The notes beneath the pieces are model-generated. The model saw only the letters and a list, made by a program, of their open reading frames with translations, ran no database searches and had not been told where the DNA came from. Positions 5,287 through 62,972 of a stretch of DNA of 64,000 bases are shown here, one piece after another; the first letter of the stretch is position 1, and each line of letters opens with the position of its first letter. Origin of the DNA: Saprospiraceae bacterium (GTDB lineage: Bacteria; Bacteroidota; Bacteroidia; Chitinophagales; Saprospiraceae); the NCBI GenBank assembly GCA_047629355.1, contig JBLHWU010000002.1, forward strand, positions 948 to 64,947, read 5' to 3'. The position numbers and the translations under genes were made by a program.

Positions 5287-7039
5287 AAAAATCATTGGGA
5301 CAGCTATCGTTGCGGTTATCATTGGCTTGGGATTAGGATATTTGATTTTTGGCAATCAAAACACCAGAAAACCACTTACTGAAAACCATCAACATGGGAT
5401 GGAAAAAGAAGCCTCGCCAATACCAAATGCTGAAGAAATTTGGACTTGTTCCATGCACCCCCAAATCCGACAACCAGAATCTGGGGATTGTGCGATTTGC
5501 GGAATGGATTTAATTTTGTTGGAGGAAAATACCTCTGACGACCCCTTAGTTTTGCAAATGACTAAATCTGCCGTAAAATTAGCAAATATTCAAACCACAA
5601 CGGTCGGTAAATCAACGATAGAAACTGGCTCAACGATGCGACTATCTGGCAAGGTACAAGCCGATGAACGACGGGCGTCTTCCCAAGTTGCGCATGTAGC
5701 AGGGCGCATTGAAAAACTCTATGTTACGTTCACCAGCGAACAAGTAAATAAAGGTCAAAAGCTGGCAGAAATTTACTCACCAGATTTGATTTCAGCACAA
5801 AGAGAATTGTTAGAAGCCTTGAAATTGCAAGACTTAAACCCTGACTTAGTAGAAGCCACAAGGAAAAAATTGCGGTATTTAAAAATCAGTAATTCCACCA
5901 TCCAAAACATCGAAGATAAAGGAAGTATTCAAGAAACCTTTACCCTTTATGCGGATGCATCGGGCATTGTGAGTGACCGTAAAGTTTCCGTTGGTGACTA
6001 TATAGCTAAAGGCGAACCGTTATTTCACCTGATGAATCTGTCTCAAGTTTGGGTACTGTTTGATGCTTATGAGGAAGCATTAGGGCACATAAAAAAAGGC
6101 GATAAAATTGAATTTACGACCCCTTCCATCTCTAATAAAACGTTTACGACAAGCATCACTTTTATTGACCCAATTATTGACCCAATGACGCGAGTCGTTT
6201 CGTTGAGAACGGAAGTCAGAAATTCCAGTCGTTTACTAAAACCTGAAATGTTGGTGTATGGCATTTTAAAAAATAAAGGGCTGCAAAATAAAACCTTGAC
6301 CGTGCCAAAATCTGCCGTTTTGTGGACGGGTAAACGCTCGGTGGTTTATGTTAAAGTACCGGATACAGAGATTCCTTCTTACCAATTTCGGGAAGTGCAA
6401 TTGGGCGAAGGAACGGGTAATGGATATCCAATAATGAGTGGTTTGGAAGCAGGCGAACAAGTGGTTACCAATGGAAGTTTCACCATTGATGCGGCGGCAC
6501 AACTCAACAATCAGGCAAGTATGATGAACCGAAATGTGACCATAAAGAAGGAGAAAGTAGGCATTCCTAATTTTCAAAAGGAAACACCTGATGTATTCAA
6601 AAAACAGTTGAATGAAGTTACCAACGCCTACATCCAACTGAAGGATGCTTTAGTTGCAACGGATGGAAGAAAAGCCATTCCTACTGCTGAAATAGTAGTG
6701 GCGAGAATCGACATGGTGGATATGAAATTGCTAAAAGGTGATGCCCATATTTATTGGATGGAGCAATTGGACGCCCTGCAAGCACACAGTCAAAAAATAA
6801 CCAAAATAGAAGATATCGAGGAGCAACGCAAGCAATTTGGGTTCCTTTCTACCGCGTTAATCAATTCAATTGAAGCCTTTGGAACAATAGGTAATGCCTT
6901 TTATGTACAACATTGTCCCATGGCATTTGGCAATGAAGGAGCGGATTGGTTGGCGGTGGAAGAAGCGATTCAAAATCCTTATTTTGGAGATAAAATGATG
7001 AAGTGTGGTTTGGTAAAGAAGACATTTTCGAACGAATAA
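5273..7039 (+). CDS. cusB: CusB-like RND periplasmic adaptor with N-terminal HMBD (CxMH...CxxCGM) and C-terminal DUF3347-like domain
   Basis: Start chosen at MQINKKIIGTAIVAVIIGLG (TM anchor). It contains WTCSMHPQIRQPESGDCAICGMDL and an MFP core (LSGKVQADERRASSQVAHVAGRIEKLYV...). The C-terminus matches my memory of DUF3347 (FYVQHCPMAF...ADWL...NPYFG). Confidence 0.85.
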   Translation: MQINKKIIGTAIVAVIIGLGLGYLIFGNQNTRKPLTENHQHGMEKEASPIPNAEEIWTCSMHPQIRQPESGDCAICGMDLILLEENTSDDPLVLQMTKSAVKLANIQTTTVGKSTIETGSTMRLSGKVQADERRASSQVAHVAGRIEKLYVTFTSEQVNKGQKLAEIYSPDLISAQRELLEALKLQDLNPDLVEATRKKLRYLKISNSTIQNIEDKGSIQETFTLYADASGIVSDRKVSVGDYIAKGEPLFHLMNLSQVWVLFDAYEEALGHIKKGDKIEFTTPSISNKTFTTSITFIDPIIDPMTRVVSLRTEVRNSSRLLKPEMLVYGILKNKGLQNKTLTVPKSAVLWTGKRSVVYVKVPDTEIPSYQFREVQLGEGTGNGYPIMSGLEAGEQVVTNGSFTIDAAAQLNNQASMMNRNVTIKKEKVGIPNFQKETPDVFKKQLNEVTNAYIQLKDALVATDGRKAIPTAEIVVARIDMVDMKLLKGDAHIYWMEQLDALQAHSQKITKIEDIEEQRKQFGFLSTALINSIEAFGTIGNAFYVQHCPMAFGNEGADWLAVEEAIQNPYFGDKMMKCGLVKKTFSNE

Positions 7040-7060
7040 ACTTGTTTATAATTCTACCTT

Positions 7061-7220
7061 AGTAACGATAAAATAATAAGTCTGACAAGTTAGACAGTGG
7101 ATAATTTTTCTCAGTTTTTACTTGAAAGAAGGATAATTGTTGATACTTTGACTAATTTCAAGTGAAAAATGAGGGAAATTTGCCCTGTCTAAATGGCGGA
7201 GTTATTTTTTTATCGTTACT
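7061..7220 (+). mobile_element. MITE family A, copy 1 (160 bp)
   Basis: Imperfect terminal inverted repeats of about 35 bp: AGTAACGATAAAATAATAAGTC...GGAGTTATTTTTTTATCGTTACT. A full reverse-complement copy lies at 15684-15841. Confidence 0.85.
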
Positions 7221-7348
7221 TAAGACTCTTGTTTCATTATTTATCAATGAGGAGTTTGAGGGAAAAAATTGGGCATTAATCCCGATTTTTTTCCTCAAAA
7301 CACCCGCCCCGTCGCCTTTGGCGGTTTGCATCAGATTTAAGAGTCTTA
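7221..7348 (+). repeat. Three-hairpin core repeat, copy a
   Basis: TTGAGGGAAAAAA..TTTTTTCCTCAAAA hairpin, then the GC palindrome region (cgccccgtcgcctttggcgg). Bounded by the inverted repeat TAAGACTCTT / AAGAGTCTTA. Confidence 0.7.
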
Positions 7349-7373
7349 AAGTAGAAATAAATACCAGAGAACT

Positions 7374-8342
7374 ATGGATAGTTTAACTCAAGCCGCTTTA
7401 GGTGCAGCCGTTGGAGAGGCAATTTTAGGTAAAAATATTGGGAATAAAGCTGCCATAATAGGTGCTGTCTTAGCAACTATTCCTGACTTGGATGTATTAC
7501 TTACACCATTTTTTTCTGCTTTTGAAAAGATTAGCGTACATCGTGGGTATAGCCATTCCATTTTATTTTGCTTGCTAGGTGGGTTATTATTTGCCTATAT
7601 TTTGAGTAAGATAAAATGGACAAAGTCGGTGCGTTTTCCTCGATTATTTTTGTTAAGTTTTCTGGCTTTGTTTACTCATGTTTTGCTCGATGCTTTTACT
7701 ACTTATGGAACACAATTATTTCTACCTTTTACAGATTGGCGAGTTAGTTTTGATAGCATCAATATTGTTGACCCTGTTTATACGATACCCTTATTGGTTG
7801 GTGTTTTGATGAGTGTTTTTTATTTTAAAAAAACAGCTACTAAAAGAGCGATGCCCAACAATATCGGCTTAATGATTAGTTCTTTATACCTTCTTTTCAC
7901 GCTTGCCAATAAGCAGCATATTGAGCAGGTTTTCAATGCTCAATTAGAAGCAAAGAATATCCCTTCTTTTCGATTGTTGACCGTTCCTGTTGGCATTGGA
8001 AATGTGAATTGGTATGGTGTGGCAAAAGACGAAACACATTTGTACATTGGAAAATACTCGGAGTTAGAACGCAATGAAATTGAATTGGACTCCTTTCCAA
8101 TTAATGACCAATTGTTAGCAGGTTTAGACCCCATTTTGGTAGATAGAATGAAATGGTTTGCGCAGGATTTCTACACGGTCGCTGAAAAAGATGGCAAGAT
8201 TCGGATTTATAATATGCAGTGTGATATGCAGGGCGTAAGAACTTACGGTGACTACAAAGCACCCACAGCTTTTTATTTTGAAATTGAACCGAAAGAGAAT
8301 GGAGCGTATGAATTGAAATCAGGGATGCATCCAAAGCAATAG
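7374..8342 (+). CDS. Membrane-bound metal-dependent hydrolase, YbcI/DUF457-like
   Basis: N-terminus is MDSLTQAALGAAVGEA...ATIPDLDVLL...HRGYSHSILF, with multiple TM segments. This matches my memory of DUF457. Confidence 0.65.
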   Translation: MDSLTQAALGAAVGEAILGKNIGNKAAIIGAVLATIPDLDVLLTPFFSAFEKISVHRGYSHSILFCLLGGLLFAYILSKIKWTKSVRFPRLFLLSFLALFTHVLLDAFTTYGTQLFLPFTDWRVSFDSINIVDPVYTIPLLVGVLMSVFYFKKTATKRAMPNNIGLMISSLYLLFTLANKQHIEQVFNAQLEAKNIPSFRLLTVPVGIGNVNWYGVAKDETHLYIGKYSELERNEIELDSFPINDQLLAGLDPILVDRMKWFAQDFYTVAEKDGKIRIYNMQCDMQGVRTYGDYKAPTAFYFEIEPKENGAYELKSGMHPKQ

Positions 8343-8363
8343 CATTTTGAAAAAAGCAGAATA

Positions 8364-8915
8364 ATGAAAAATGTAAAAATATTAATAAAAAACATGGTTT
8401 GCCCAAGATGTATTCGGGTAGTCAATGATGATTTAACGGCGTTGCAACTGCCTTTGGAAAGAGTAGAAATGGGTATTGTTTGGATGAAAAAGGAATTAAC
8501 CACAAAGCAAGCACAAGCCATGCAAGAAGTTCTGGAAGCCAGTGGTTTTGAAATTATTGAAAATCGGGAAGATGCCTTGGTTGAAGAAATTAAAAAGTTG
8601 ATAACGGAATATCTATTCGGGCAGACCCCAAAAGCAAACTCACTTAACTTCTCTGATTATTTGATGCAAAAAACCAATGTTAATTACGGGCAATTAAGTC
8701 GCTTATTTTCTACGACAACGAGGATGACGATTGAACAATTTATCATTATACAGAAAATTGAACGAGTGAAAGAGTTAATGAAAACTGGCGAAAAAAACTT
8801 ATCTGAAATTAGTTTAGAAATGCAATACAGCAGTCCGCAACATTTGTCTACTCAATTTAAGAAAGTGACGGGCATGACACCAACTGCTTATAAATTGAGA
8901 CAATTGGAAGATTAG
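8364..8915 (+). CDS. AraC/XylS-family transcription regulator with N-terminal HMA-like CxxC domain
   Basis: N-terminus IKNMVCPRCIRVVNDDL...VEMG is ferredoxin-fold HMA-like. The C-terminus is an AraC HTH (EISLEMQYSSPQHLSTQFKKVTGMTPTAYK). It sits directly upstream of copA. Confidence 0.8.
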   Translation: MKNVKILIKNMVCPRCIRVVNDDLTALQLPLERVEMGIVWMKKELTTKQAQAMQEVLEASGFEIIENREDALVEEIKKLITEYLFGQTPKANSLNFSDYLMQKTNVNYGQLSRLFSTTTRMTIEQFIIIQKIERVKELMKTGEKNLSEISLEMQYSSPQHLSTQFKKVTGMTPTAYKLRQLED

Positions 8916-8959
8916 AAAATCATAATCCTATACAATTCAATCAGAATTCTGTACATCGA

Positions 8960-9096
8960 AAAGGGCTGTTTATTTGTTTATCAAAGGGGTTTTAGGAGAG
9001 AGAAAAATTGAATTTTTATAGAAAATTGAATTTTTCTCTCCCCTAAGCCTCCTCCCCTGCCGCCGCAGGCAGCGGGCTGGGTGGTTTTGATCCGTA
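8960..9096 (+). repeat. Three-hairpin core repeat, copy b, filling the araC-copA gap
   Basis: ATCAAAGGGGTTTTAGGAGAGAGAAAAATT..AATTTTTCTCTCCCCTAAGCCTCC then ctgccgccgcaggcagcggg. It ends about 20 bp before the copA ATG. Confidence 0.7.
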
Positions 9097-9118
9097 CATT
9101 TTTAAAAAATAATTAGAC

Positions 9119-27543: not shown

Positions 27544-28779
27544 TTAAGCCCCCATCAACTTATTCAAGGACAACTCCAAGGCCGCCGTTGAAATGTTTGT
27601 CAAATTTGGGCTATAATCGTATACTTTTTGCAATGCTTCTCTAATCGTTTCCGATACATCGCCAAAAATCGCTTCGTCCGTCATCTTCGCATCCGGCTTC
27701 ATCAAATAAGCAAATACCCGCGCCATTCCACAATTGGCAATAAAATCTGGTACGATACTCATCTGCGCATCCGCAAATTTTGCTGTCGGTCCAAAAAATA
27801 TTTTATCGCCCACAAACGGAACGTTAGCACCACAAGAAATCACCTCCATACCGCCTGCAATCATCGCATCGACTTGTCCACGCGTCACCAACTTAGAAGC
27901 AGCACCAGGAATAAAAATATCTGCACCTAAGCTCCAGATTTTTTCGTTAACTTCTTCAAAAGATAGCATATTTTCAAATGCCAATTTATTGCCTTTCTTA
28001 TTGACAAACAAAGCCTTAACTTCTTCTACTCCCAAACCTTCTTCTGAAATAATGCCACCTTCTCTGTCAATAATTCCTATTACTTTTGCACCGAATAAAG
28101 TCAAATAAGAAGCTGCCGCCGAAGCTACATTTCCCCAACCTTGAATGATAATTTTCTTTCCTTCCATTGATTCCTTTCGATAAATATCATAAAAATGCTT
28201 CACCGATTCCGATACACCATAGCCTGTAATCAAATCCGCAACTGCCATTTTATGTTCACCATCTGGAACGTATTTTGGGTCTTCCACAATCTTCGCACAA
28301 CCATATCGCAATTGCCCCAATATCCGAACCGCGGCCCCACTATCTGATTTAAGGTGTCCGCGCACGATACCTTCTTGTGGATGCCACAAGCCAAGGTCTT
28401 CCGTGATTGGAATGACATCTTTTAATTCGTCAACATTTAAATCGCCACCCGTTCCATAGTAATTTTTCAACAATGGAATAACTGCTTTGTACCAACGTTT
28501 CAATACTTCTTCACGGCGTGGGTCACGCGGGTCGAAGTCAATACCTGATTTTGCACCACCGATATCTGGACCACAGACGGAAAATTTAATTTCCATCACT
28601 TTCGCCAATGATACGACTTCGTCTTTGGTCAAGCCTTTTCGCATCCGTGTTCCGCCACCTGCTGCGCCTCCGCGTAAGGAATTGATGACCACCCAACCAC
28701 GAGCATCTGTTTCAGAATCGCTCCATTCGAATACGATTTCTGGTCTTTTTTCTTTATACTTGTTTAATAGATCTTCCAT
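27544..28779 (-). CDS. gdh: Glu/Leu/Phe/Val-family (glutamate) dehydrogenase
   Basis: Start taken at MEDLLNKYKEK. Contains GGAAGGGTRMRKG and KSGIDFDP plus a Rossmann-like GWGNVASAAA. The upstream NRINRINRINRI extension is a translated tandem repeat. Confidence 0.85.
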   Translation of the reverse strand: MEDLLNKYKEKRPEIVFEWSDSETDARGWVVINSLRGGAAGGGTRMRKGLTKDEVVSLAKVMEIKFSVCGPDIGGAKSGIDFDPRDPRREEVLKRWYKAVIPLLKNYYGTGGDLNVDELKDVIPITEDLGLWHPQEGIVRGHLKSDSGAAVRILGQLRYGCAKIVEDPKYVPDGEHKMAVADLITGYGVSESVKHFYDIYRKESMEGKKIIIQGWGNVASAAASYLTLFGAKVIGIIDREGGIISEEGLGVEEVKALFVNKKGNKLAFENMLSFEEVNEKIWSLGADIFIPGAASKLVTRGQVDAMIAGGMEVISCGANVPFVGDKIFFGPTAKFADAQMSIVPDFIANCGMARVFAYLMKPDAKMTDEAIFGDVSETIREALQKVYDYSPNLTNISTAALELSLNKLMGA

Positions 28780-28824
28780 AATTCGATTAATTCGATTAAT
28801 TCGATTAATTCGATTAACTCGATT
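28780..28824. repeat. 9-bp tandem repeat x5 abutting the gdh start codon
   Basis: Plus strand aattcgatt x4 then aactcgatt. Partial inverted copies lie at about 28834-28870. Confidence 0.9.
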
Positions 28825-29023
28825 AGTTTGGACAATCGAAATAATCGAATTAATCCATTTAATCGTGTCAATCAATTTGGTGGTGCGAAATTAATATTTC
28901 TAAAATTCTTATTTACATCCTTTCGTGGGAAATTTTAATGTTTAAATTTGCTGCAATTAAGGATTTCTAAAAATGGTAATCTATATTAACCATTAATCCC
29001 TAATCATTAAACATTCATTTACT

Positions 29024-31454: not shown

Positions 31455-32720
31455 TTACTTAAAAAGCGGAACAAACTTAGTCAAAATCGCCTCAATTTCC
31501 TTCGTTTCAAAATCGGCTAATTTGTCAAATTTGTCAAAATAAGCAGTTTTCTTTGCTTTTTTGGCACTTCCTCCTTGAAATCCTTTTTGCAATTTTTTAA
31601 GAAAATCTATTTCAACAGATGCTAATTCTGCTATTTTTTCAATAGACCATTCAGGAAGTTGGGTCATTAGCGTGAGTGAAAAATTGATACTTTTAATCAA
31701 AGATTCAATTTCTTTGCCTTCTATCTTACCCTGTGATTTGATATAGTCATAGCCTGAAACAAATCTTTCTGCTACTTCTTCTGGCAATTGCGTGGTTACT
31801 TGATTCGGTAGTGCTACAAATGTGCACCACCATTTATTGAAAAAGTGATTTATTACCGTGTAAACAAAGGTTCTTTTAAGTTTGAGCAGCGAGAAAATCG
31901 TAAGATTATCGAGCTTCCAAAAACACAGTGCGCGTTGCCTACGGCAACGCGGGAGGGGTATTAAGGGACAAAAGCACCTAAACTGTAAAGTGGTGCACAT
32001 TTGTGGCACTACCCTTGATTCATATCTTCTTGATTTAATTTTAATAAATACATAAAATAGCTGACCAACTATTTCGTTAAGAATGTCTCTCTTTTCTTTA
32101 TTTTCTTCTTTGTCTATTCCCACGAATATCTGCCCTGCATCTGTTTTTAAATAATCTTCATCATCTGAATGTTTAAAAATAAGCAGCACATTTTTTAAAA
32201 AACCTGCGTCCATGTTGAGAATGAATTCATCTGATATAGTCAGCCAAATTTACTAAAATATATTCACTCGTGGAAATGTATTGGTGAAAAATCTTTGGCA
32301 GATTAGTAAAACTATCTGTAAAAGGGCGCTTCGTCCAACGCTTACTTCCATGATAAAACAAAATTGGCAACACTGGAATTAACGGTTGACTATTGATGAT
32401 GTTTTGTTGATGAATACTCGAAATATAGTGCTGTATCTGTGCATGAGGATGAACAGAAGGATTACTTTTATGCTCCAATAAAATGGCAATCTGGATTGGA
32501 ATATCAGTTTTTAAATGAGCAGAAAAAATCAAATCAGATTCCGTTTTCCGCAAAGCTTCGTTGATATGCGATTTTTCGAGGATAGCTAATTCACTTAAAT
32601 CTAAGTAATCCCTAATTTCTTTTGGCGGTATTTGTGACAAAAAGTCGTGTGTAACCTCCAACATTGAGAAGGTCTTTTCAAAAAAATTATTGTGTGGATG
32701 GTGAGTTTTTTTTTGCTCAT
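31455..32720 (-). pseudogene. Rpn-family (PD-(D/E)XK, YhgA-like) recombination-promoting nuclease / putative transposase, multiply disrupted
   Basis: N-terminal domain: PHNNFFEKTFSMLEVTHDFLSQ...SDLIFSA...ILLEHKS...PILFYHGSKRW. The ATG at 32720 is out of frame across a 9-nt homopolymer (32706-32714). There is a stop at 32227 with a frame change, and MITE-D1 is inserted at 31807-32013. Confidence 0.7.
31807..32013 (+). mobile_element. MITE family D, copy 1 (207 bp), 8-bp TSD CTTGATTC
   Basis: Termini GGTAGTGCTACAAATGTGCAC / GTGCACATTTGTGGCACTACC. Direct repeats at 31799-31806 and 32014-32021. The interior holds the hairpin-2 and hairpin-3 core but lacks hairpin 1. Confidence 0.85.
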
Positions 32721-32848: not shown

Positions 32849-33106
32849 GGTAGTGTAACAAATGTGCACCACCATTTATTGAAAAAGTGATTTATTACCG
32901 TGTAAACAAAGGTTCTTTTAAGTTTGAGAAGCTCGAAAACCGTAAGGCTTTCGAGCTTCAAAAAACACAGTGCGCGTTGCCTGCGGCAACGCGGGAGAGG
33001 TATTAAGGGACAAAAACGATTTTTGCAAAGTCGTTTTTGTCCCTTAAAAACCCCTTTGATAAACAAAAGCACCTAAACTGTAAAAGTGCACATTTGTGGC
33101 ACTACC
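32849..33106 (+). mobile_element. MITE family D, copy 2 (258 bp), 8-bp TSD CATGCGGG
   Basis: Same termini as copy 1. Direct repeats at 32841-32848 and 33107-33114. It contains the complete three-hairpin core. Confidence 0.85.
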
Positions 33107-36290: not shown

Positions 36291-36480
36291 GAATAACCTC
36301 GGATGAAATCCGAGAGATAGCGAAAAAAGGCGTAACAACTCTGAAGGCGTTGAATGTAACAAGTAGATATTCAACTCCTTCAGAGTTATTGCATGCTGTG
36401 CCATTTTCCGCAGATTGCATCTGCGGTTATTCCTATTCAATCTCTCCGAGATTACTGCGAATGTCAGTTGATAACTGACA
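36291..36480. repeat. Multi-hairpin element related to family F
   Basis: cctcggatgaaatccgagag, aactctgaagg..ccttcagagtt, ccgcagattgcatctgcgg and gtcagttgataactgac. Outer pairing is gaataacc / ggttattc. Confidence 0.6.
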
Positions 36481-36530
36481 CGTAATGATTAATCAGGTAA
36501 AATCTTTAGTCAAGATTTTTTCGATAGTTT
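36478..36530 (-). mobile_element. MITE family C, partial copy
   Basis: gattaatcaggtaaaatctttagtcaagattttttcgatagttt matches the reverse complement of the right third of 62513-62668. Confidence 0.7.
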
Positions 36531-36542
36531 ATGTTGAGGTAC

Positions 36543-37975
36543 CATAGCCGTCAGGCTAACAGCTTAATAATTTGCCACGATGATAATTCTGGCGGTTGTC
36601 CTTTAAGTTTTCGGACATCCTTTTTAGCTCTTTTTATCAAAGAATTAGCTATTCTATCTACCCACCGCATTAATTTATTCCCTTTTTGCAAAAGAGCATC
36701 TGCTAATTCAGAAAGTTTATTCTTAACGATTTTTGCCACTTTCATTGGACTTAATTCAAACTCACTTTCATCCCACAAAACTGTCCAAATTTATTGTGAA
36801 TATGTAAAGACAACAAAATCGCAATTAATTTGTAATAGATATAGCATTCAAATCTAAAAATGCTCATCTTTTTTACCTTGTCTATTTCAAATACTGATTT
36901 CCATATTTTGAAAATTAATTCTATTTGCCAACGCAAAGTATAGACGATTCTTACCATTGATGCGGGAAGCATTTCCTGAGTGGCATTAGTGATATACATA
37001 TTGAAAAAGCACATTGCTTTTCTTTGCTCACTGATGGTTAAATTCTTGTGTTTACTAGCATATTGTTCCAGCTTCTTTAGCCTTTTTATTGCTACTTCTT
37101 CTGGTACGGCTTGCATAATAAGCCGAGTTTTAACCTTTGTTCGTCCCCATCCAATATAAACGTCGGTTAATTCTTTGGTTTGCCCCTTTTTTGGAAGATG
37201 TTCGGATATATCTAAACGAACAAATTCTCCTTTTTCATTTAATTGACTATAAACAGCATTAGTTTTACTTCTACTTAAAAAGTATGCATTATTCTCTGCT
37301 ACGCTATTTAAATAATTCAAATCTAAGTAACCTAAATCTCTGATATAAAAACCATTGGCTTGTATCGTCTCTGTTTTACCTAATTTATATAAATTGTCAT
37401 GAGCTACTCCGTCGGTTAGTGCTAAATCAACCACTTCTCCGTTGAGTAAATTATAATTAAAGTGCATTTTTATAATTGCCGCACCTCCATTGCCAGTATA
37501 GCCTGTATAAAAGCAGATAACGAGGCAGGAATTTGAAAAGAGGTTGAATCCGTTAATTGTATTCTACTAAACGGTAATTTCAAATCTCTATCAATTACTC
37601 CTTCATTAACGATTTGCAAAATTCTATTGAAACAACTTTGCATAAATTTAACTGCATCTGTATTGTATCTCTCATCTAAAGACTGCTTAGTCATATCTAT
37701 ATCAAAGTGGTCTACTAACCAATCACAGCAGTCATTTAGGCTTCTTTCTTGACCATCAGCAGAATCAAAAACGTTCATCATCAAAAATGACTGCCCAGTT
37801 AACCCAGACCTAACTCCTTTGAATAAAATTAGTTTGACGAGCAAGTTTCTCAAGACTTTCCTCATCAAAGCAGCTTCTTAATTCTCTCATTAATGTTCTT
37901 TGTTCAAATTTTTCTATTTGCATAGCGTTTTTATACAAATTTACTACTTTTGATATTCTTAGCCTGACGGCTATG
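36543..37975 (-). mobile_element. IS4-family insertion sequence (1433 bp) with 17-bp terminal inverted repeats and a perfect 10-bp target-site duplication
   Basis: IRs CATAGCCGTCAGGCTAA (36543-36559) and TTAGCCTGACGGCTATG (37959-37975). Flanking direct repeats GTTGAGGTAC at 36533-36542 and 37976-37985. Confidence 0.9.
36551..37923 (-). pseudogene. IS4-family DDE transposase split into four frames
   Basis: Pieces 37923-37810, 37868-37470, 37467-36751 and 36778-36551. YREK signature YTLRWQIELIFKIWK. An alternate frame near 37500 reads FYTGYTGNGGGAAIIKMHF, showing an indel. Confidence 0.85.
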
Positions 37976-37995
37976 GTTGAGGTACTTAAAATATT

Positions 37996-38238
37996 GGTAG
38001 TGCCACAAATGTGCACTTTTACAGTTTAGGTGCTTTTGTTTATCAAAGGGGTTTTTAAGGGATAAAAACGATTTTATCCCTTAATACCCCTCCCGCGTTG
38101 CCGCAGGCAACGCGCACGGTGTTTTTTGAAGCTCGAAAGCCTTGCAGTTTTCTCGCTTCTCAAACTTAAAAGAACCTTCGTTTACACGGTAATCAATCAC
38201 TTTTTCAATAAATGATGGTGCACATTTGCTACAGTACC
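37996..38238 (-). mobile_element. MITE family D, copy 3 (inverted), 8-bp TSD AAAATATT
   Basis: Same termini as copies 1 and 2. Direct repeats at 37988-37995 and 38239-38246. It contains the full three-hairpin core. Confidence 0.85.
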
Positions 38239-44217: not shown

Positions 44218-44742
44218 ATGCGTTTTTTACCTTTGTTGTTGCTGACCTTTTTGTGGTCTTGTACGGATTCAACTAATCAAGAACCTACAACAGAAACGAC
44301 TCCAGCTACCAATCCAGCACCTGTTCCAGCGGCAAAATTGGAAGCGATTTATCCTGCTTATCCTGTAGAAAAACTCCAGTATTTATTTGAAAATTCTGAT
44401 TACATAGATTATGTTTTCTACGAATTGCCGATGAGTATGAGTTTGAGTGAAAAAGCAAGTATCCAATATTCCATTAGCCATGTTTCGGCGGAACAAGCAC
44501 CAATTAACGCCAATTGTAAATCGCTTGGACGTATTTTTTATCAATTAAAAGGGGAGAATGTTGCAGAAGCGGAAATTGTTTTCAATGCGCCAGAACAGTG
44601 TTCTTATTTCGTTTTTTATGACAATGGTAAAAAGACCTATGCCAATCAAATGACAGAAGCAGGGATAAAATATTTGCAGCAAAATATTATGAATGCCGTT
44701 AAAAGTATGCAGCAGGCGCAAGGACAAGGACAAGGACAATAA
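44218..44742 (+). CDS. Hypothetical lipoprotein
   Basis: Lipobox FLWSCTD, Thr/Pro-rich linker, C-terminal GQGQGQGQ. Confidence 0.55.
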   Translation: MRFLPLLLLTFLWSCTDSTNQEPTTETTPATNPAPVPAAKLEAIYPAYPVEKLQYLFENSDYIDYVFYELPMSMSLSEKASIQYSISHVSAEQAPINANCKSLGRIFYQLKGENVAEAEIVFNAPEQCSYFVFYDNGKKTYANQMTEAGIKYLQQNIMNAVKSMQQAQGQGQGQ

Positions 44743-44859
44743 ATTCCAGTTTTAGAAAGTAAATACGAATCATCCCGAATTTTAAACTGTAGAAATTCGG
44801 AACAATTAAGTTCAATTTTTTACTGCAAACTCAATAGATTTTTCAGATTGATTGTGACT

Positions 44860-44988
44860 AAAGGGAGTTTGAGGGATAAAAGTGGTTTACAAAACCGCTT
44901 TTATCCCTCAAAACCCCACTCGCGATGCCGCAGGCAGCGCGCATTGTATTTTTTAAAGCTCGAAAATCTTGCGATTTTCTCGCTGCTT
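44860..44988 (+). repeat. Three-hairpin core repeat, copy f
   Basis: AAAGGGAGTTTGAGGGATAAAAGTGG..CCGCTTTTATCCCTCAAAACCCC, cgcgatgccgcaggcagcgcg, gctcgaaaatcttgcgattttctcgc. Confidence 0.8.
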
Positions 44989-45060
44989 AATTTTTTAGCA
45001 ACCTCTTGTTGCCATTTACTACTTCATGCTGATTTTTTTTATTAAAATTCTGCTGTGTTC

Positions 45061-45124
45061 CTATGGAATTTAAAAGGGGGAATAAATTTTTTTTTAAATT
45101 TATTCCCCCTTTTAAATTCCATAG
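45061..45124. terminator. Long perfect palindrome (29-bp arms) downstream of gcvT
   Basis: CTATGGAATTTAAAAGGGGGAATAAATTT / AAATTTATTCCCCCTTTTAAATTCCATAG. Confidence 0.6.
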
Positions 45125-45222
45125 CGGCGACTTGTATTTTATATAAAAACTAAATTTTTACGCCGCGAAATGCGCCAATCCTCTATTAATGAACGCTAAG
45201 GAATGCTAAACAGGCAATCCAC

Positions 45223-46329
45223 CTACCCTTTATAAAAGGGTGGTTTCACTACCTTGGCAGCCAATAGCTTCTTCCGCGCAACTATCTGTATTTCTGTTCC
45301 TTCTGTCGCAAATTCTACCGGTACGTAACCCATACCAATTGGTTTCTCCAAGGACGGAGACATCGTTCCAGAAGTGACAATTCCGATTTCGTTGCCGTAC
45401 ATATCTTCGATTGGATAATCGTGACGCGGTACTCGGCGGTCCGTTACTTCAAAGCCAACCAACTTTCGTTTGACACCTTCTGCTCGTTGTTTTTGAAAAA
45501 TTTCGACCGAGTTAAAGTCCCCTTTTTTCGTTTTGGTAATCCAACCCAAACCCGCTTCAATTGGCGAAGTCGTATCGCTAATGTCATTGCCGTACAACGC
45601 AAACCCCATTTCCAAACGCAACGTATCACGCGCGCCTAATCCAACAGGTTCGATGCCTTCTTCTTTTCCAGCTTCAAAAATAGCGTCCCATAAGGCAGCC
45701 AAATCCTTGGAACCGACATACAATTCAAATCCACCTGCACCTGTGTAGCCCGTTGCGGATAGGATGATATTTTCTAAACCTGCGATGCTTCCTTTTGTAA
45801 ATTTATAATATTTGATGGCAGACAAATCAACATCTGTCAATTTTTGTAAAACCTTCACGGCATTCGGTCCTTGTACCGCCAATAAGCCTGTGAAATCAGA
45901 AATGTTCGTCATTTCCGCCTCAAAATCGTTGTGTTGACTAATCCAATTCCAGTCTTTTTCGATGTTCGATGCGTTAACAACCAACATGAATGCTTTCTCG
46001 CCTTCTGAACATTTATCTTCGGGCAAACGATAGACTAAAAGGTCATCAACGACCCCGCCTTCATGGTTTGGCAAACACGAATATTGTGCATCTCCAATTT
46101 CTAATTTTGACGCATTATTGGAAGTTACTTTTTGAATTAAATCCAATGCCCCCTTTCCTTTAATGATGAATTCACCCATATGGGAAACATCAAAAACGCC
46201 AACATTTTGTCGAACGGCAGCGTGTTCTTCATTAATTCCCTTGTAAGAAATCGGCATGTTGTAGCCTGCGAATTCTGCCATTTTTGCACCGAGAGCGAGG
46301 TGTTTTTCTGTAAGTGGAGTGGTTTTCAT
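45223..46329 (-). CDS. gcvT: Glycine cleavage system aminomethyltransferase T
   Basis: [29 protein letters not shown]...[12 protein letters not shown]...GYTGAGGFE. Confidence 0.95.
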
Positions 46330-48496: not shown

Positions 48497-48662
48497 ATTA
48501 GTACCGCGAAATAAATAGATTCAGATTCTTGACAGGATATTTTGTCCTCATTTTTTACTTTAAAAATGCTCATTATGTCAACATAAATCACAGTTTCAAA
48601 GCAAAAAGAGAAAACAAAACCTCACTCCCAAGAATCTGAATTTATTTATTTCGTGTTCCTTA
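48497..48662 (+). mobile_element. MITE family B, copy 1
   Basis: About 38-bp TIRs (..CGAAATAAATAGATTCAGATTCTTGACAG / ..CAAGAATCTGAATTTATTTATTTCG..). It is colinear with 59784-59948. Confidence 0.85.
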
Positions 48663-49610: not shown

Positions 49611-49636
49611 AGAATGAATTTTATTTAGCAATTTTT

Positions 49637-49710
49637 TGTAGCGGCGACTTTAATTCCCAAGCTTTTTTTAAAATATGAAAGCAGCTTGGCGACTAAAGTC
49701 GCCGCTACAG
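49637..49710. repeat. Nested palindrome TGTAGCGGCGACTTTA...TAAAGTCGCCGCTACA
   Basis: Read directly. Inner pairing is ccaagct/agcttgg. Confidence 0.7.
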
Positions 49711-49800
49711 AAAAGAACGCAAAGGAACGGGTTTTTCTTTTTCAGATGAGTATTTTTTTAAATATTATTTTAAATATTGGAAAAATCAGAAAGGAAATTT

Positions 49801-59543: not shown

Positions 59544-59783
59544 TTAGATTTAATTTCCATCCTTTAAAAATCAGACTACTTTGCTGCCAGAAGATAAAAA
59601 TCAGAGAACACAATGACTTCTGACAGCAAATCGGTCTGGCTTCTAATATCTGCTAAAGAATGCAATGTCTGATTATTTTTCAAAAAATAAAAAATTTAAT
59701 AGAAAAAACCTCAGGTGAACGATTCTTTTTACTTTTGCGTTCTAAAGATGGTCTTTGGCTAATTAATCTTTGGTTTTTAGCCA

Positions 59784-59948
59784 TTAGGAATGCGAATTAA
59801 ATAAACTCAGACTCTTGAGAGGATATTTTGCCCTCATTTTTTACTTTAAAAATGCTCATTATATCAACATAAATCGCACTTTCAAAGCAAAAAGGAAGCA
59901 CAAAACCGCTCTCTCAAGAATCTAACTTTATTTATTTCGCATTCCTTA
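59784..59948 (+). mobile_element. MITE family B, copy 2
   Basis: Colinear with 48497-48662. Confidence 0.85.
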
Positions 59949-60619: not shown

Positions 60620-60639
60620 TGAGGCTGTTTAAAAAGTTG

Positions 60640-60832
60640 GTAACTACTCCGGTAGCGGACACGTTGATTGCTTCAGTACGATTAGATAAAAATCACCTCG
60701 AAAATTAAGTAAGAGCCGTGTCCGCTACCTATTTCTCCTGTTAGGTAACAGATACGGCTCTTACTTAATTTCGTGGGTATTTGAAAGATTCATTCGCTTG
60801 TAAACTGACGTGTCCGCTACCTGAGTAGTTAC
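60640..60832. repeat. Nested palindromic element with three copies of CGTGTCCGCTACC
   Basis: Outer arms GTAACTACTCCGGTAGCGGACACG / CGTGTCCGCTACCTGAGTAGTTAC. Inner arms AAATTAAGTAAGAGCCGT / ACGGCTCTTACTTAATTT. Confidence 0.8.
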
Positions 60833-60852
60833 AAAAGTTGACTGATATTTTA

Positions 60853-60912
60853 GGGAAGGGATTTTGAGGGACAAAAATGGTTTGCAAACCGTTTTTGTCC
60901 CTCAAAATCCCT
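60853..60912 (+). repeat. Solo hairpin-1 module of the three-hairpin repeat
   Basis: GGGATTTTGAGGGACAAAAATGG..CCGTTTTTGTCCCTCAAAATCCC. Confidence 0.75.
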
Positions 60913-61089
60913 ATTGGTACGCCCCTATCGAGTCCGTTGAAGTAGCCACTACTTCATAATCATACAACGATTTACCAATTTAAATAGCCACATTTGGACT
61001 ATAATTAGTGCGACATTAGGGGGAGAGTAAATTACTAAAGCAACGGTAAATACATCGTTTAATTAAGTGCAATACATAAGCCGACTTTT

Positions 61090-62000: not shown

Positions 62001-62512
62001 GTTCAAGGATATTAATAAGAGGAACACAAGGATGGCGAGATTTTTTGTGCGAAAAATCATCGTCGTTTTCTCATAGTTAACCTCCGTTTTAGAATAAATG
62101 TTTCAAAACGGGATGTGTAGACTGAATGTAAAATTGTGTAGATTCGAATATAAAAATTTCAATAAAAAGTCTTCTAAAAATGTATGTGTGTGTGTAAAAG
62201 AGAAATTAACCTGTCAGATTTTTAGTAGAAAAAAATTAAAATAGTGCTGTAGAAGTTTCAATTTCGTCGGGGTCAATCTGACTCCTGACTTCTCGCTTCT
62301 GACATCTTTTTTTCGCCTGACAGGTATTTCCTTTTTTAAAATAGTCTCATAGTAAAATTAAAAGTGCTCAAAATATCTTAATGCCTTTTCATTTTTTAAT
62401 TTATTATACATTAAGATATTTTACCATAAACCAATAACAATACCAAAATTTTCCATTGCCTTATTTTTTTTGAAAAAAGAAACGTTGGTAGCCTATGTTA
62501 TATAAGTAACGC

Positions 62513-62668
62513 GTAGTAATTAATCAGGTAATTTTATAAACATCTTTTTCCACTATTTTCCCTTAAAAATTTCTTCAAGAACACTGGCTATTCAAGAATT
62601 TTTAAAGAAAAACTATCGAAAAAATCTTGTCTAAAAATTTTACCTGATTAATTACTACGCGTTACTTA
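62513..62668 (+). mobile_element. MITE family C, copy 2 (complete, 156 bp)
   Basis: TAAGTAACGCGTAGTAATTAATCAGGTAA...TTACCTGATTAATTACTACGCGTTACTTA. Confidence 0.85.
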
Positions 62669-62972
62669 ACAATGAAAAATTCGTTGAAAGAAAACTTATT
62701 TTTCATTATAAATGGCTGATTTTAAAAGCTTTTTTCACAAAAACTGGCTATCTTAAATTAAGAAAATAAAAATAAATAAATAAATTTTAAAAAATCAAAT
62801 TACAAAAATATTTTATTTGTAAAACAATGATTAAAAGCTAATTGGCAAAGTAATTGTAATATTCCAAGCAATGAACATTCCCGTCTTACACGTCTTCGAA
62901 TCGAATCGAAACTACACCACAAAAGAAAATATTAGAGAAACTTATTTTTTTACGTTAGAACATACTTATCCC

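Follow-up and report, generated by a model that had tools for sequence, protein, structure and literature searches.

In a 64,000-nucleotide stretch of DNA from a Saprospiraceae bacterium (contig JBLHWU010000002.1 of assembly GCA_047629355.1, positions 948 to 64,947; hereafter the window), a non-coding repeat of three hairpins, which we term H1, H2 and H3, recurs at ten loci. [quoted passage not shown] The observations are best explained by a family undescribed so far that is carried by MITEs and whose pairing is upheld at the DNA level. Its carriers, in turn, are best explained as marine and sea-ice Bacteroidota that are either kin to the Saprospiraceae or exchange mobile elements with them.

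The copy at 44855-44997, which we use as the reference, folds into three hairpins with an energy of -60.5 kcal/mol (z = -7.7 relative to dinucleotide shuffles). The core measures about 140 nt, or 195-260 nt when the surrounding framework is included, and its ends are constant (CAAAGGG... to ...TTCTCAWAWTTMAA) across unrelated frameworks. H1 and H3 are dissimilar to each other when aligned. The H1 arm motif matched 12 times in the window, compared with 0.39 matches expected by chance, and the arms were always adjacent and paired; the possibility that they represent the two ends of a full-length insertion sequence was rejected, as the arms always adjoin and no gene lies between them. We searched the window with an nhmmer profile built from eight of the copies listed in an earlier, sequence-only reading of this DNA, and recovered ten loci with E-values from 7e-39 to 2e-10. 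A covariance model (R1), run unfiltered over the window, placed the same ten loci on top with scores of 148.5 to 48.7 bits; the next-ranked matches, at no more than 40.6 bits, were unrelated long hairpins such as the one at 45061-45124.

These searches agree with much of what the sequence-only reading had described. It had listed about ten copies, and both the profile hidden Markov model and the covariance model placed them at the same coordinates or a few bases off. Its view of a modular, multi-copy family was likewise confirmed, with ten loci counted in the window and over 60 outside it. The assignment of three modules to each copy holds for the full copies; those at 7242-7356 and 8978-9112 lack H3, and the one at 13017 lacks H1. 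The reading had also been unable to match the repeat to any named repeat or RNA family, and this still stands: the Rfam search it had suggested, performed at gathering score over all 64 kb, returned no matches, and in E-value mode yielded only sub-threshold matches to miRNA-type hairpins. Similarly, we found no publication on such a repeat, in Saprospiraceae or in other taxa.

The modules behave as separable units that can be turned around, shortened or lost (loci with an L number lie outside the window). The apex of H1 reads TTTGCAAAAA in most copies and its reverse complement, TTTTTGCAAA, in L021 and L006; GCA forms the loop of H2 in 17 copies, and TGC does so in 4; and in L047 the entire H3 is inverted, its asymmetric internal mismatch included, while the rest of the element remains collinear. 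H2 is cleanly lost in four copies (L001:17, L021, L033 and L065), and the H1 apex is deleted at window position 38041 and in L064. Such flipped, apex-deleted, lost or solo modules agree with how DNA palindromes are known to behave, and would follow from their instability.

Evidence for mobility comes from the inverted repeats and duplications that surround many of the copies. Three window copies lie inside a composite element, MITE-D, whose inverted repeats (GGTAGTGCCACAAATGTGCAC) occur nowhere else in the window; all three are flanked by a perfect 8-bp target-site duplication, each of a different sequence (Table 1). MITE-D also has an inner end of the B-like type described below, and therefore looks like an outer MITE with a three-hairpin MITE nested within it. 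In copies from a Saprospiraceae metagenome-assembled genome (MAG), the core is placed between 21-bp terminal inverted repeats (TIRs) of type A (TACAGTGTAAAGTAAGTTTCT) or type B (TACCGTGTAACAAAAGTTTCT), and the left and right types may differ. Among the 13 such TIR-A/B copies with both ends readable, four carry exact direct flank repeats of 4-5 nt (ATAG, CTAAG, TTTAA and TATTA) and two carry near-exact ones, relative to a chance expectation of about 0.1, which is a rough estimate and not a computed value. The duplication of these copies may be TA alone, with ends reading TA followed by CAGTG. Five copies from marine metagenomes lie within a third, unrelated pair of 34-nt inverted repeats (ACTCGACCCGACAAAAAATAT...; framework ACTCGACCCGACAAAAAAT / ACTCGACCCG...) with differing outer flanks, and yet other inverted repeats enclose single copies at window 17457/17632 and in L085. 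Elements frequently abut or nest in each other. At L083:6155-6290 and L098:3080-3162, another MITE of about 140 nt, with CAGGCTGACCGA as its inverted repeat, sits precisely within the loop of H2 and is accompanied by a duplication of 5 bp, CGCAG; a remnant of it remains at L096:1362-1506. Some element of these genomes therefore targets hairpin loops.

The stems differ in sequence among copies and nevertheless remain paired. RNAalifold, applied to a MAFFT alignment, recovered only H1 because H2 and H3 are gapped; the structure was therefore written by hand and tested against controls in which the pairing partners were slid. In the MAFFT alignment of 38 copies, 91.9% of the stem cells were paired under this structure, 22 of the 42 pairs had changed on both sides (162 cells), and none of 500 shuffles equaled this; sliding the partners lowered pairing to at most 54%. 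An alignment of 49 copies fitted to the covariance model gave 93.3% paired cells, with 25 pairs changed on both sides. Another such alignment of 55 copies, a set that includes copies found by a pattern leaving H1, H2 and the 3' arm of H3 free, gave 93.7% paired stem cells and 24 of 42 pairs changed on both sides (231 cells; 0 of 500 shuffles equal), while slid controls reached no more than 56%. When copies were compared pairwise, compensatory double changes exceeded the expectation under independence 7-10-fold at every level of divergence (for example, 0.134 observed versus 0.015 expected per pair position), and about 88% of the double changes retained a Watson-Crick pair. Compensated changes private to single copies were also found: H1 of L013 has two relative to its subfamily (G>A with C>T, and A>C with T>G).

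Covariation of this strength, seen in all three alignments, is what would be expected if the core were a cis-acting RNA or transcription element recruited by the host, such as a terminator, an insulator, an mRNA-stabilizing 3' hairpin or an RNase site, with its stems kept by selection on RNA. The slower evolution of stems than of linkers and the occurrence of repeat pieces in two metatranscriptomes fit this explanation too, as does the sense-strand arrangement of H2, in which a T-run begins about 6 nt past the GC-rich hairpin. Elements such as REP, BOX and Correia are known to influence co-transcribed genes (PMC3049150), and since palindromes fold either way round, a function could be bidirectional. 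We nevertheless regard an RNA role as unlikely. Among the stem mismatches, G:T (46) is about as frequent as A:C (41), which argues against a one-strand RNA, in which G:U would be tolerated and A:C would not. Folding is equally favorable for either strand (-60.5 versus -59.6 kcal/mol). Based on crude open reading frame (ORF) calls, the copies in tandem gene contexts are oriented at random, 14 with the genes and 12 against them, and the copies show no preference for gene 3' ends (26 lie in tandem, 8 in convergent and 9 in divergent contexts); the window copies appear perfectly co-oriented with genes, but only three of them are informative. Both signatures specific to RNA, an excess of G:U over A:C and co-orientation with genes, are thus absent. 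In a terminator scan, three of nine copies were flagged as weakly terminator-like (H2 plus T-run), and a Rho-independent terminator was rejected: the T-run is separate from the stem, most copies fail the scan, and neither 3' ends nor one orientation is preferred. The free flipping and deletion of modules, the movement of copies with target-site duplications within MITEs and the empty Rfam search point in the same direction. GC skew, tried as a guide to the replication arm, tracked the gene strand and was uninformative. The evidence speaks against an RNA structure under selection, or at least against one on the sense strand.

These results bear on several proposals of the sequence-only reading. 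It had taken stems that vary yet stay paired as a sign of selection on structure; the pairing and covariation are borne out, but selection on a regulatory RNA structure is not. It had itself named random orientation, combined with a lack of transcript boundaries at copies, as a result that would count against its view, and the comparison with flanking genes gave the first of these (14 versus 12). The roles it offered, as terminators, attenuators or RNA-stability elements, find no backing in the orientation, the gene contexts or the three weakly terminator-like copies. Finally, it had pointed to the crowding of copies in the copper island, the segment with the copper genes, and to a possible regulatory meaning there. 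The density is real, with five of the ten copies in that island, but other MITE families crowd this region as well, and the copies therefore look like tolerated insertions rather than regulation. Individual copies may still affect neighboring genes locally, such as the one that stops 7-16 bp upstream of copA.

The constancy of the core and its boundaries in at least three unrelated frameworks, and in copies without any, would also be explained if the core itself were mobile, moved by a single-strand-DNA (HUH/Y1) transposase that reads folded hairpins in the style of REPIN-RAYT systems or IS200/IS605 derivatives and lands centrally in other palindromes. Hairpins do lie just within both core ends, the conserved trait is hairpin structure and not sequence, and the asymmetric TC/TC mismatch of H3 resembles the imperfect palindromes read by Y1 transposases. 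REP-like palindromes tagged with GTAG share these genomes as well (window 49632-49714 and 60637-60835; L052 and L074). We consider this explanation improbable, however, as H1 is unlike H3, whereas the ends of IS200/IS605 elements have near-identical hairpins, and the sequences flanking the core on its 5' side do not share a conserved tetra- or pentanucleotide as target. Strand-specific insertion would moreover be biased, whereas the window holds six plus and three minus copies in 64 kb. A partial scan of 30 window ORFs against Pfam gave no Y1_Tnp match, and the target-site duplications and terminal inverted repeats suggest DDE-type movement for at least some copies. On the grounds of the unlike hairpins, the lack of a fixed target, the mixed strands and the duplications, an IS200/IS605-derived palindrome element was rejected. 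With a similarly small chance, the core may be an independent, hairpin-dependent mobile cassette of an undescribed kind that homes to, or is repeatedly captured by, the centers or loops of other palindromes. The same core and boundaries would then be found between three or more unrelated inverted repeat pairs and without any, and the stems would stay paired since the folded DNA is the substrate of transposition. Least probable, in our judgment, is that the copies are sites of host chromosomal architecture that bind nucleoid proteins, gyrase or the like, as proposed for the BIMEs of E. coli. Their high density (10 copies in 64 kb), strictly intergenic location and conserved, strand-symmetric structure would suit such a role; their module content, however, is highly variable (modules are lost, flipped or truncated), copies are nested in or carried by other MITEs, the known range is narrow, covering two Saprospiraceae MAGs only among the matches listed, and no protein partner is known.

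We therefore favor a MITE-like element. Its core spreads through intergenic DNA when enclosed by terminal inverted repeats that are open to a transposase acting in trans, and three such frameworks are seen, namely TIR-A/B, MITE-D in the window and the ACTCGACCCGACAAAAAAT framework of the marine metagenomes, with the insertions marked by target-site duplications. The stems would drift in sequence but remain complementary through processes that operate at the DNA rather than the RNA level. A first candidate is template switching during replication between the arms of a quasi-palindrome, which would make the arms alike and leave the spacer inverted. Template switching is known to homogenize the arms of inverted repeats and to invert their spacers (PMC8604942), and can create or repair a stem in a single event (PMC8794818). 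The other candidate is that master copies are selected for a hairpin on which the machinery of transposition depends. There are reports of compensatory changes for REPINs (PMC3116915) and, according to the summary in PMC3184786, for bcr1. Effects on neighboring genes would be by-products of insertion and not the reason for the family's existence.

Several observations weigh against this explanation. Flank duplications were found in only about half of the TIR-A/B copies, and 3 of the 13 have inverted flanks instead. Terminal inverted repeats or target-site duplications could not be recognized around the reference copy or the one at 15475, so that not all copies are demonstrably MITEs. Neither the window nor about 350 kb of loci yielded an autonomous transposase flanked by TIR-A/B, by the MITE-D inverted repeats or by H1 arms. 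No empty site and no presence/absence polymorphism was seen, and a second sample contains the 44855 copy without any difference. Divergence is slower in stems than at unpaired positions, close copies included (0.048 versus 0.084 per site), which could fit either arm-to-arm repair or selection on each copy. Lastly, the repeat pieces in the two metatranscriptomes stem from unstranded contigs of low depth, which are silent on transcript ends. Further searches bear on the same points. The TIR-A/B and MITE-D inverted repeats led to no parent insertion sequence in the window, the loci or the viral contigs, and the contigs of an ice metagenome contained no joint that skips the whole 44855-44997 element. 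The DDE_Tnp_1 insertion sequence of the window (36751-37868) and its Transposase_31 gene were rejected as parents, as their ends differ.

Beyond the window, we scanned genomes, one per species, with a pattern for H3, and metagenomes with a pattern for the linker. Among the genome matches listed, true family members occur only in two uncultured Saprospiraceae MAGs, with at least 40 loci in CAYUNA01, many of them at contig ends, and a single copy in CAZQTE01; matches in other taxa are chance hits to the short pattern. The window and CAYUNA01 match each other in the repeats only. The metagenome scan returned 22 contigs, mostly marine, which add 21 family copies. Viral contigs gave no family matches, and carriage by phages was rejected on this basis. 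The gcvT gene of the window and its adjoining DNA were found at 99.8-100% identity in sea-ice and seawater metagenomes. In one ice metagenome, the summed contig depth over the repeat was about 6,000-15,800, compared with about 160 over unique flanks (an excess of about 40-100-fold), which suggests tens to about 100 copies (at least 90% identity) per genome equivalent, a rough figure to which related species in the sample may contribute. Overall, 74 of 76 copies lie outside ORFs of 110 or more amino acids.

Table 1. Modules of the reference copy and copies of the three-hairpin repeat in the window, with the span matched by nhmmer where a copy was found by it
Feature	Position	Strand	nhmmer span	Score	Details
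H1 of reference copy	44863-44917				26-bp arms
H2 of reference copy	44921-44941				GC-rich, GCA loop
H3 of reference copy	44955-44986				conserved TC/TC internal mismatch
Full-length reference copy	44855-44997	+	44863-44994	covariance model 139.6 bits; nhmmer E = 3e-38	
Partial copy	7242-7356	+	7251-7348	covariance model 54.9 bits; nhmmer E = 4e-18	H1 and degenerate H2, without H3
Partial copy	8978-9112	+	8986-9103	covariance model 59.3 bits; nhmmer E = 3e-17	divergent long H1 (GGAGAGAGAAAAATTGAATTTT) and H2, without H3
5'-truncated copy	13017-13133	+	13017-13109	nhmmer E = 2e-14	H2 remnant and H3, without H1
Full-length copy	15475-15616	+	15483-15613	covariance model 112.9 bits	
Full-length copy	17483-17628	-	17620-17486	covariance model 124.4 bits	3' arm of H3 degenerate
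MITE-D copy 1	31807-32013	-	31979-31878		core 31875-31989, H1 lacking its 5' arm; terminal inverted repeat GGTAGTGCYACAAATGTGCAC; 8-bp duplication CTTGATTC
MITE-D copy 2	32849-33106	-	33053-32920	covariance model 148.5 bits	complete core 32917-33061, H3 a perfect palindrome; 8-bp duplication CATGCGGG
MITE-D copy 3	37996-38238	+	38049-38167	covariance model 119.8 bits	core 38041-38170, H1 apex deleted; 8-bp duplication AAAATATT
Solo H1 module	60857-60912	none	60858-60914 (both strands, equal score)		56-bp palindrome, 28-bp arms, 96% complementary; without H2 and H3

The window encodes type IX secretion system (T9SS) sorting domains (Por_Secre_tail), Cus-type efflux, CopA, adk, gdh, radA, guaB, gcvT and pth; these T9SS domains and housekeeping genes identify it as chromosomal Bacteroidota DNA, with 38% G+C. 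It has too few genes in common with the Saprospiraceae MAG loci to be placed by orthologues, and the sequence-based assignment to Saprospiraceae therefore relies on the repeat family that they share and on the T9SS sorting domains. The reference copy, whose sequence is unchanged in a second metagenome sample, lies between convergent genes, an ORF at 44218-44742 and gcvT at 45223-46329. The copy at 7242-7356 has short inverted repeats (ACTTAAGACTCTT) on both sides and is located between a CusB-like gene and a YdjM gene, while the one at 8978-9112 ends just short of the copA ATG at 9119 (flanking genes by Pfam). A type-A right terminal inverted repeat (AAACTTACTTTACAGCGTA) is retained at 13113-13133 in the 5'-truncated copy, and the copy at 17483-17628 is bracketed by 32-nt inverted repeats (17457-17488 and 17632-17663). 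The copy at 15475 is bordered by simple repeats, (CCAT)n on its left (15455-15474) and, on its right, (ATATCAA)n (15617-15650), expanded from the 3' end of the element.

At least five distinct families of short repeats are present in the window. A second MITE-like family, palindromic and about 164 bp long (arms 7061-7087 and 7194-7220), occurs at 7059-7222, inverted at 15681-15843 (96-98% identical) and partially at 17296-17465. Its two inverted copies bracket the copper segment at 7.2-15.7 kb, which could reflect a composite mobile unit or mere MITE density. Another palindromic family of about 166 bp (arms ATTAGGAATGCGAATTAAATAAACTCAGACTCTTGAGAG) is found at 48497-48662 and 59783-59948 (86% identical), with a partial copy at 17340-17421. 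An IS4/IS5-type insertion sequence at 36468-37990 is apparently split into two ORFs (36751-37467 and 37470-37868, DDE_Tnp_1), and its end, TAAGTAAYRCGTA...TTAATCAGGTAA, recurs in elements of about 155-170 bp at 13668-13823 and 62500-62672 that look like MITEs derived from it. The GTAG-tagged REP-like palindromes (GTAGCGGCGACTT..., GGTAGCGGACACG...) form a family distinct from the three-hairpin repeat; in addition to the window sites given above, they occur at 45121-45135, at L052:2725 and at L074:2456. In two MAG copies, a GTAG palindrome replaces H1 of the three-hairpin element. Their presence hints at a RAYT-type system in these genomes. The perfect palindrome at 45061-45124, whose 29-bp arms are CTATGGAATTTAAAAGGGGGAATAAATTT and the complement thereof, follows the reference copy 64 bp downstream in the same gap between convergent genes and may be another solo module or a bidirectional terminator. 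A Transposase_31 (YhgA/Rpn-like) ORF on the minus strand at 32227-32664 covers profile positions 15-153 of 203 and is followed by a 252-amino-acid ORF with no Pfam match that runs through MITE-D copy 1 (region 31455-32664); the gene may have been disrupted or extended by the MITE-D insertion. Finally, the 5' end of a glutamate dehydrogenase-like ORF (27544-28875, minus strand) contains a tandem array of a 9-mer, (AATTCGATT)n, at 28780-28878, which makes up an imperfect inverted repeat.

Strong covariation (24 of 42 pairs) can come from a palindrome of selfish DNA that gives no indication of acting as a sense-strand RNA. This calls for caution in non-coding RNA discovery pipelines, as a functional RNA is not proven by covariation on its own. 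The family also provides many natural replicates of three dissimilar hairpins, which drift, flip, lose their apex or disappear, and it could serve to measure the repair of quasi-palindromes by template switching in a bacterial lineage that has received little study. On the practical side, the repeat breaks the assemblies of sea-ice and marine Saprospiraceae-like MAGs, in which many copies lie at contig ends, and masking or modeling it would help both binning and annotation.

Among known systems, classical bacterial MITEs, such as Correia/NEMIS and those of the Bacteroidota catalogue, share with our family a small size, non-coding sequence, terminal inverted repeats, target-site duplications, and an intergenic, nested or clustered location (PMC11602168, PMC10969869). 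Our copies are small (below about 500 bp), non-coding and numerous, and target-site duplications flank some of them but not every one. Terminal inverted repeats are present in the MAG copies, in MITE-D, in the ACTCGACCCG framework and at 17457/17632, and are not recognizable at 44855-44997 and 15475. In most MITEs the ends are conserved, whereas here an internal cassette is conserved, the inverted repeats vary by framework, and the parent insertion sequence was not found. Integron attC sites (R''/R' cores RYYYAAC ... GTTRRRY) were rejected as an identity for the repeat, as its ends read CAAAGGG... and ...TTCTCAWAW, both strands contain copies, which have housekeeping genes such as pth, gcvT and radA around them, and no integrase was seen.

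The nearest analogues of the three-hairpin repeat are the REPIN/BIME, bcr1 and BOX repeats, to none of which it belongs by sequence or by defining traits. The REP, BIME and REPIN palindromes resemble it in being extragenic and of high copy number, in their mosaic modularity, in a long hairpin with compensated changes, and in loops that serve as insertion targets (PMC3116915, PMC3733652). They differ in that our family has no GTAG/CGTC tag, its H2 being preceded in the alignment by CCCACY/CCTCC, and in that terminal inverted repeats and duplications surround many of its copies; its unit is about 140 nt of three unlike hairpins, in contrast to an inverted pair of REPs. Membership in the REP/RAYT system was rejected, since the repeat has no GTAG/CGTC head. 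No RAYT gene was found among the 30 window ORFs compared with Pfam.

Another comparable system is bcr1 of the Bacillus cereus group, described in the summary that PMC3184786 gives of Klevan 2007 and Kristoffersen 2011 as MITE-like, about 155 bp long, flanked by 5-bp direct repeats and subject to compensatory changes that keep a cruciform-like structure. Judged from that summary, the two families are alike in size, MITE-like character, direct repeats and compensated pairing, and the stability of bcr1 differs among copies. Transcription of bcr1 is reported there, with an interpretation of its pairing at the RNA level, whereas the three-hairpin family argues for the DNA level through its random orientation and its near-equal G:T and A:C mismatches. 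The two are unrelated in sequence and host.

The BOX elements of S. pneumoniae (boxA-boxB(n)-boxC), which have been described together with RUP and SPRITE, are similarly short, intergenic, multi-copy, modular, structured, non-coding and narrow in range. They vary in the number of modules, are limited to close relatives, and have been judged parasitic yet able to affect co-transcribed genes (Croucher et al. 2011, PMC3049150). The three-hairpin repeat shares no sequence similarity with BOX, belongs to another phylum, and consists of three distinct hairpins rather than a repeated boxB. To our knowledge, flipping of single hairpins has not been reported for BOX. The three-hairpin core, furthermore, differs from BOX in occurring inside several unrelated terminal inverted repeat frameworks.

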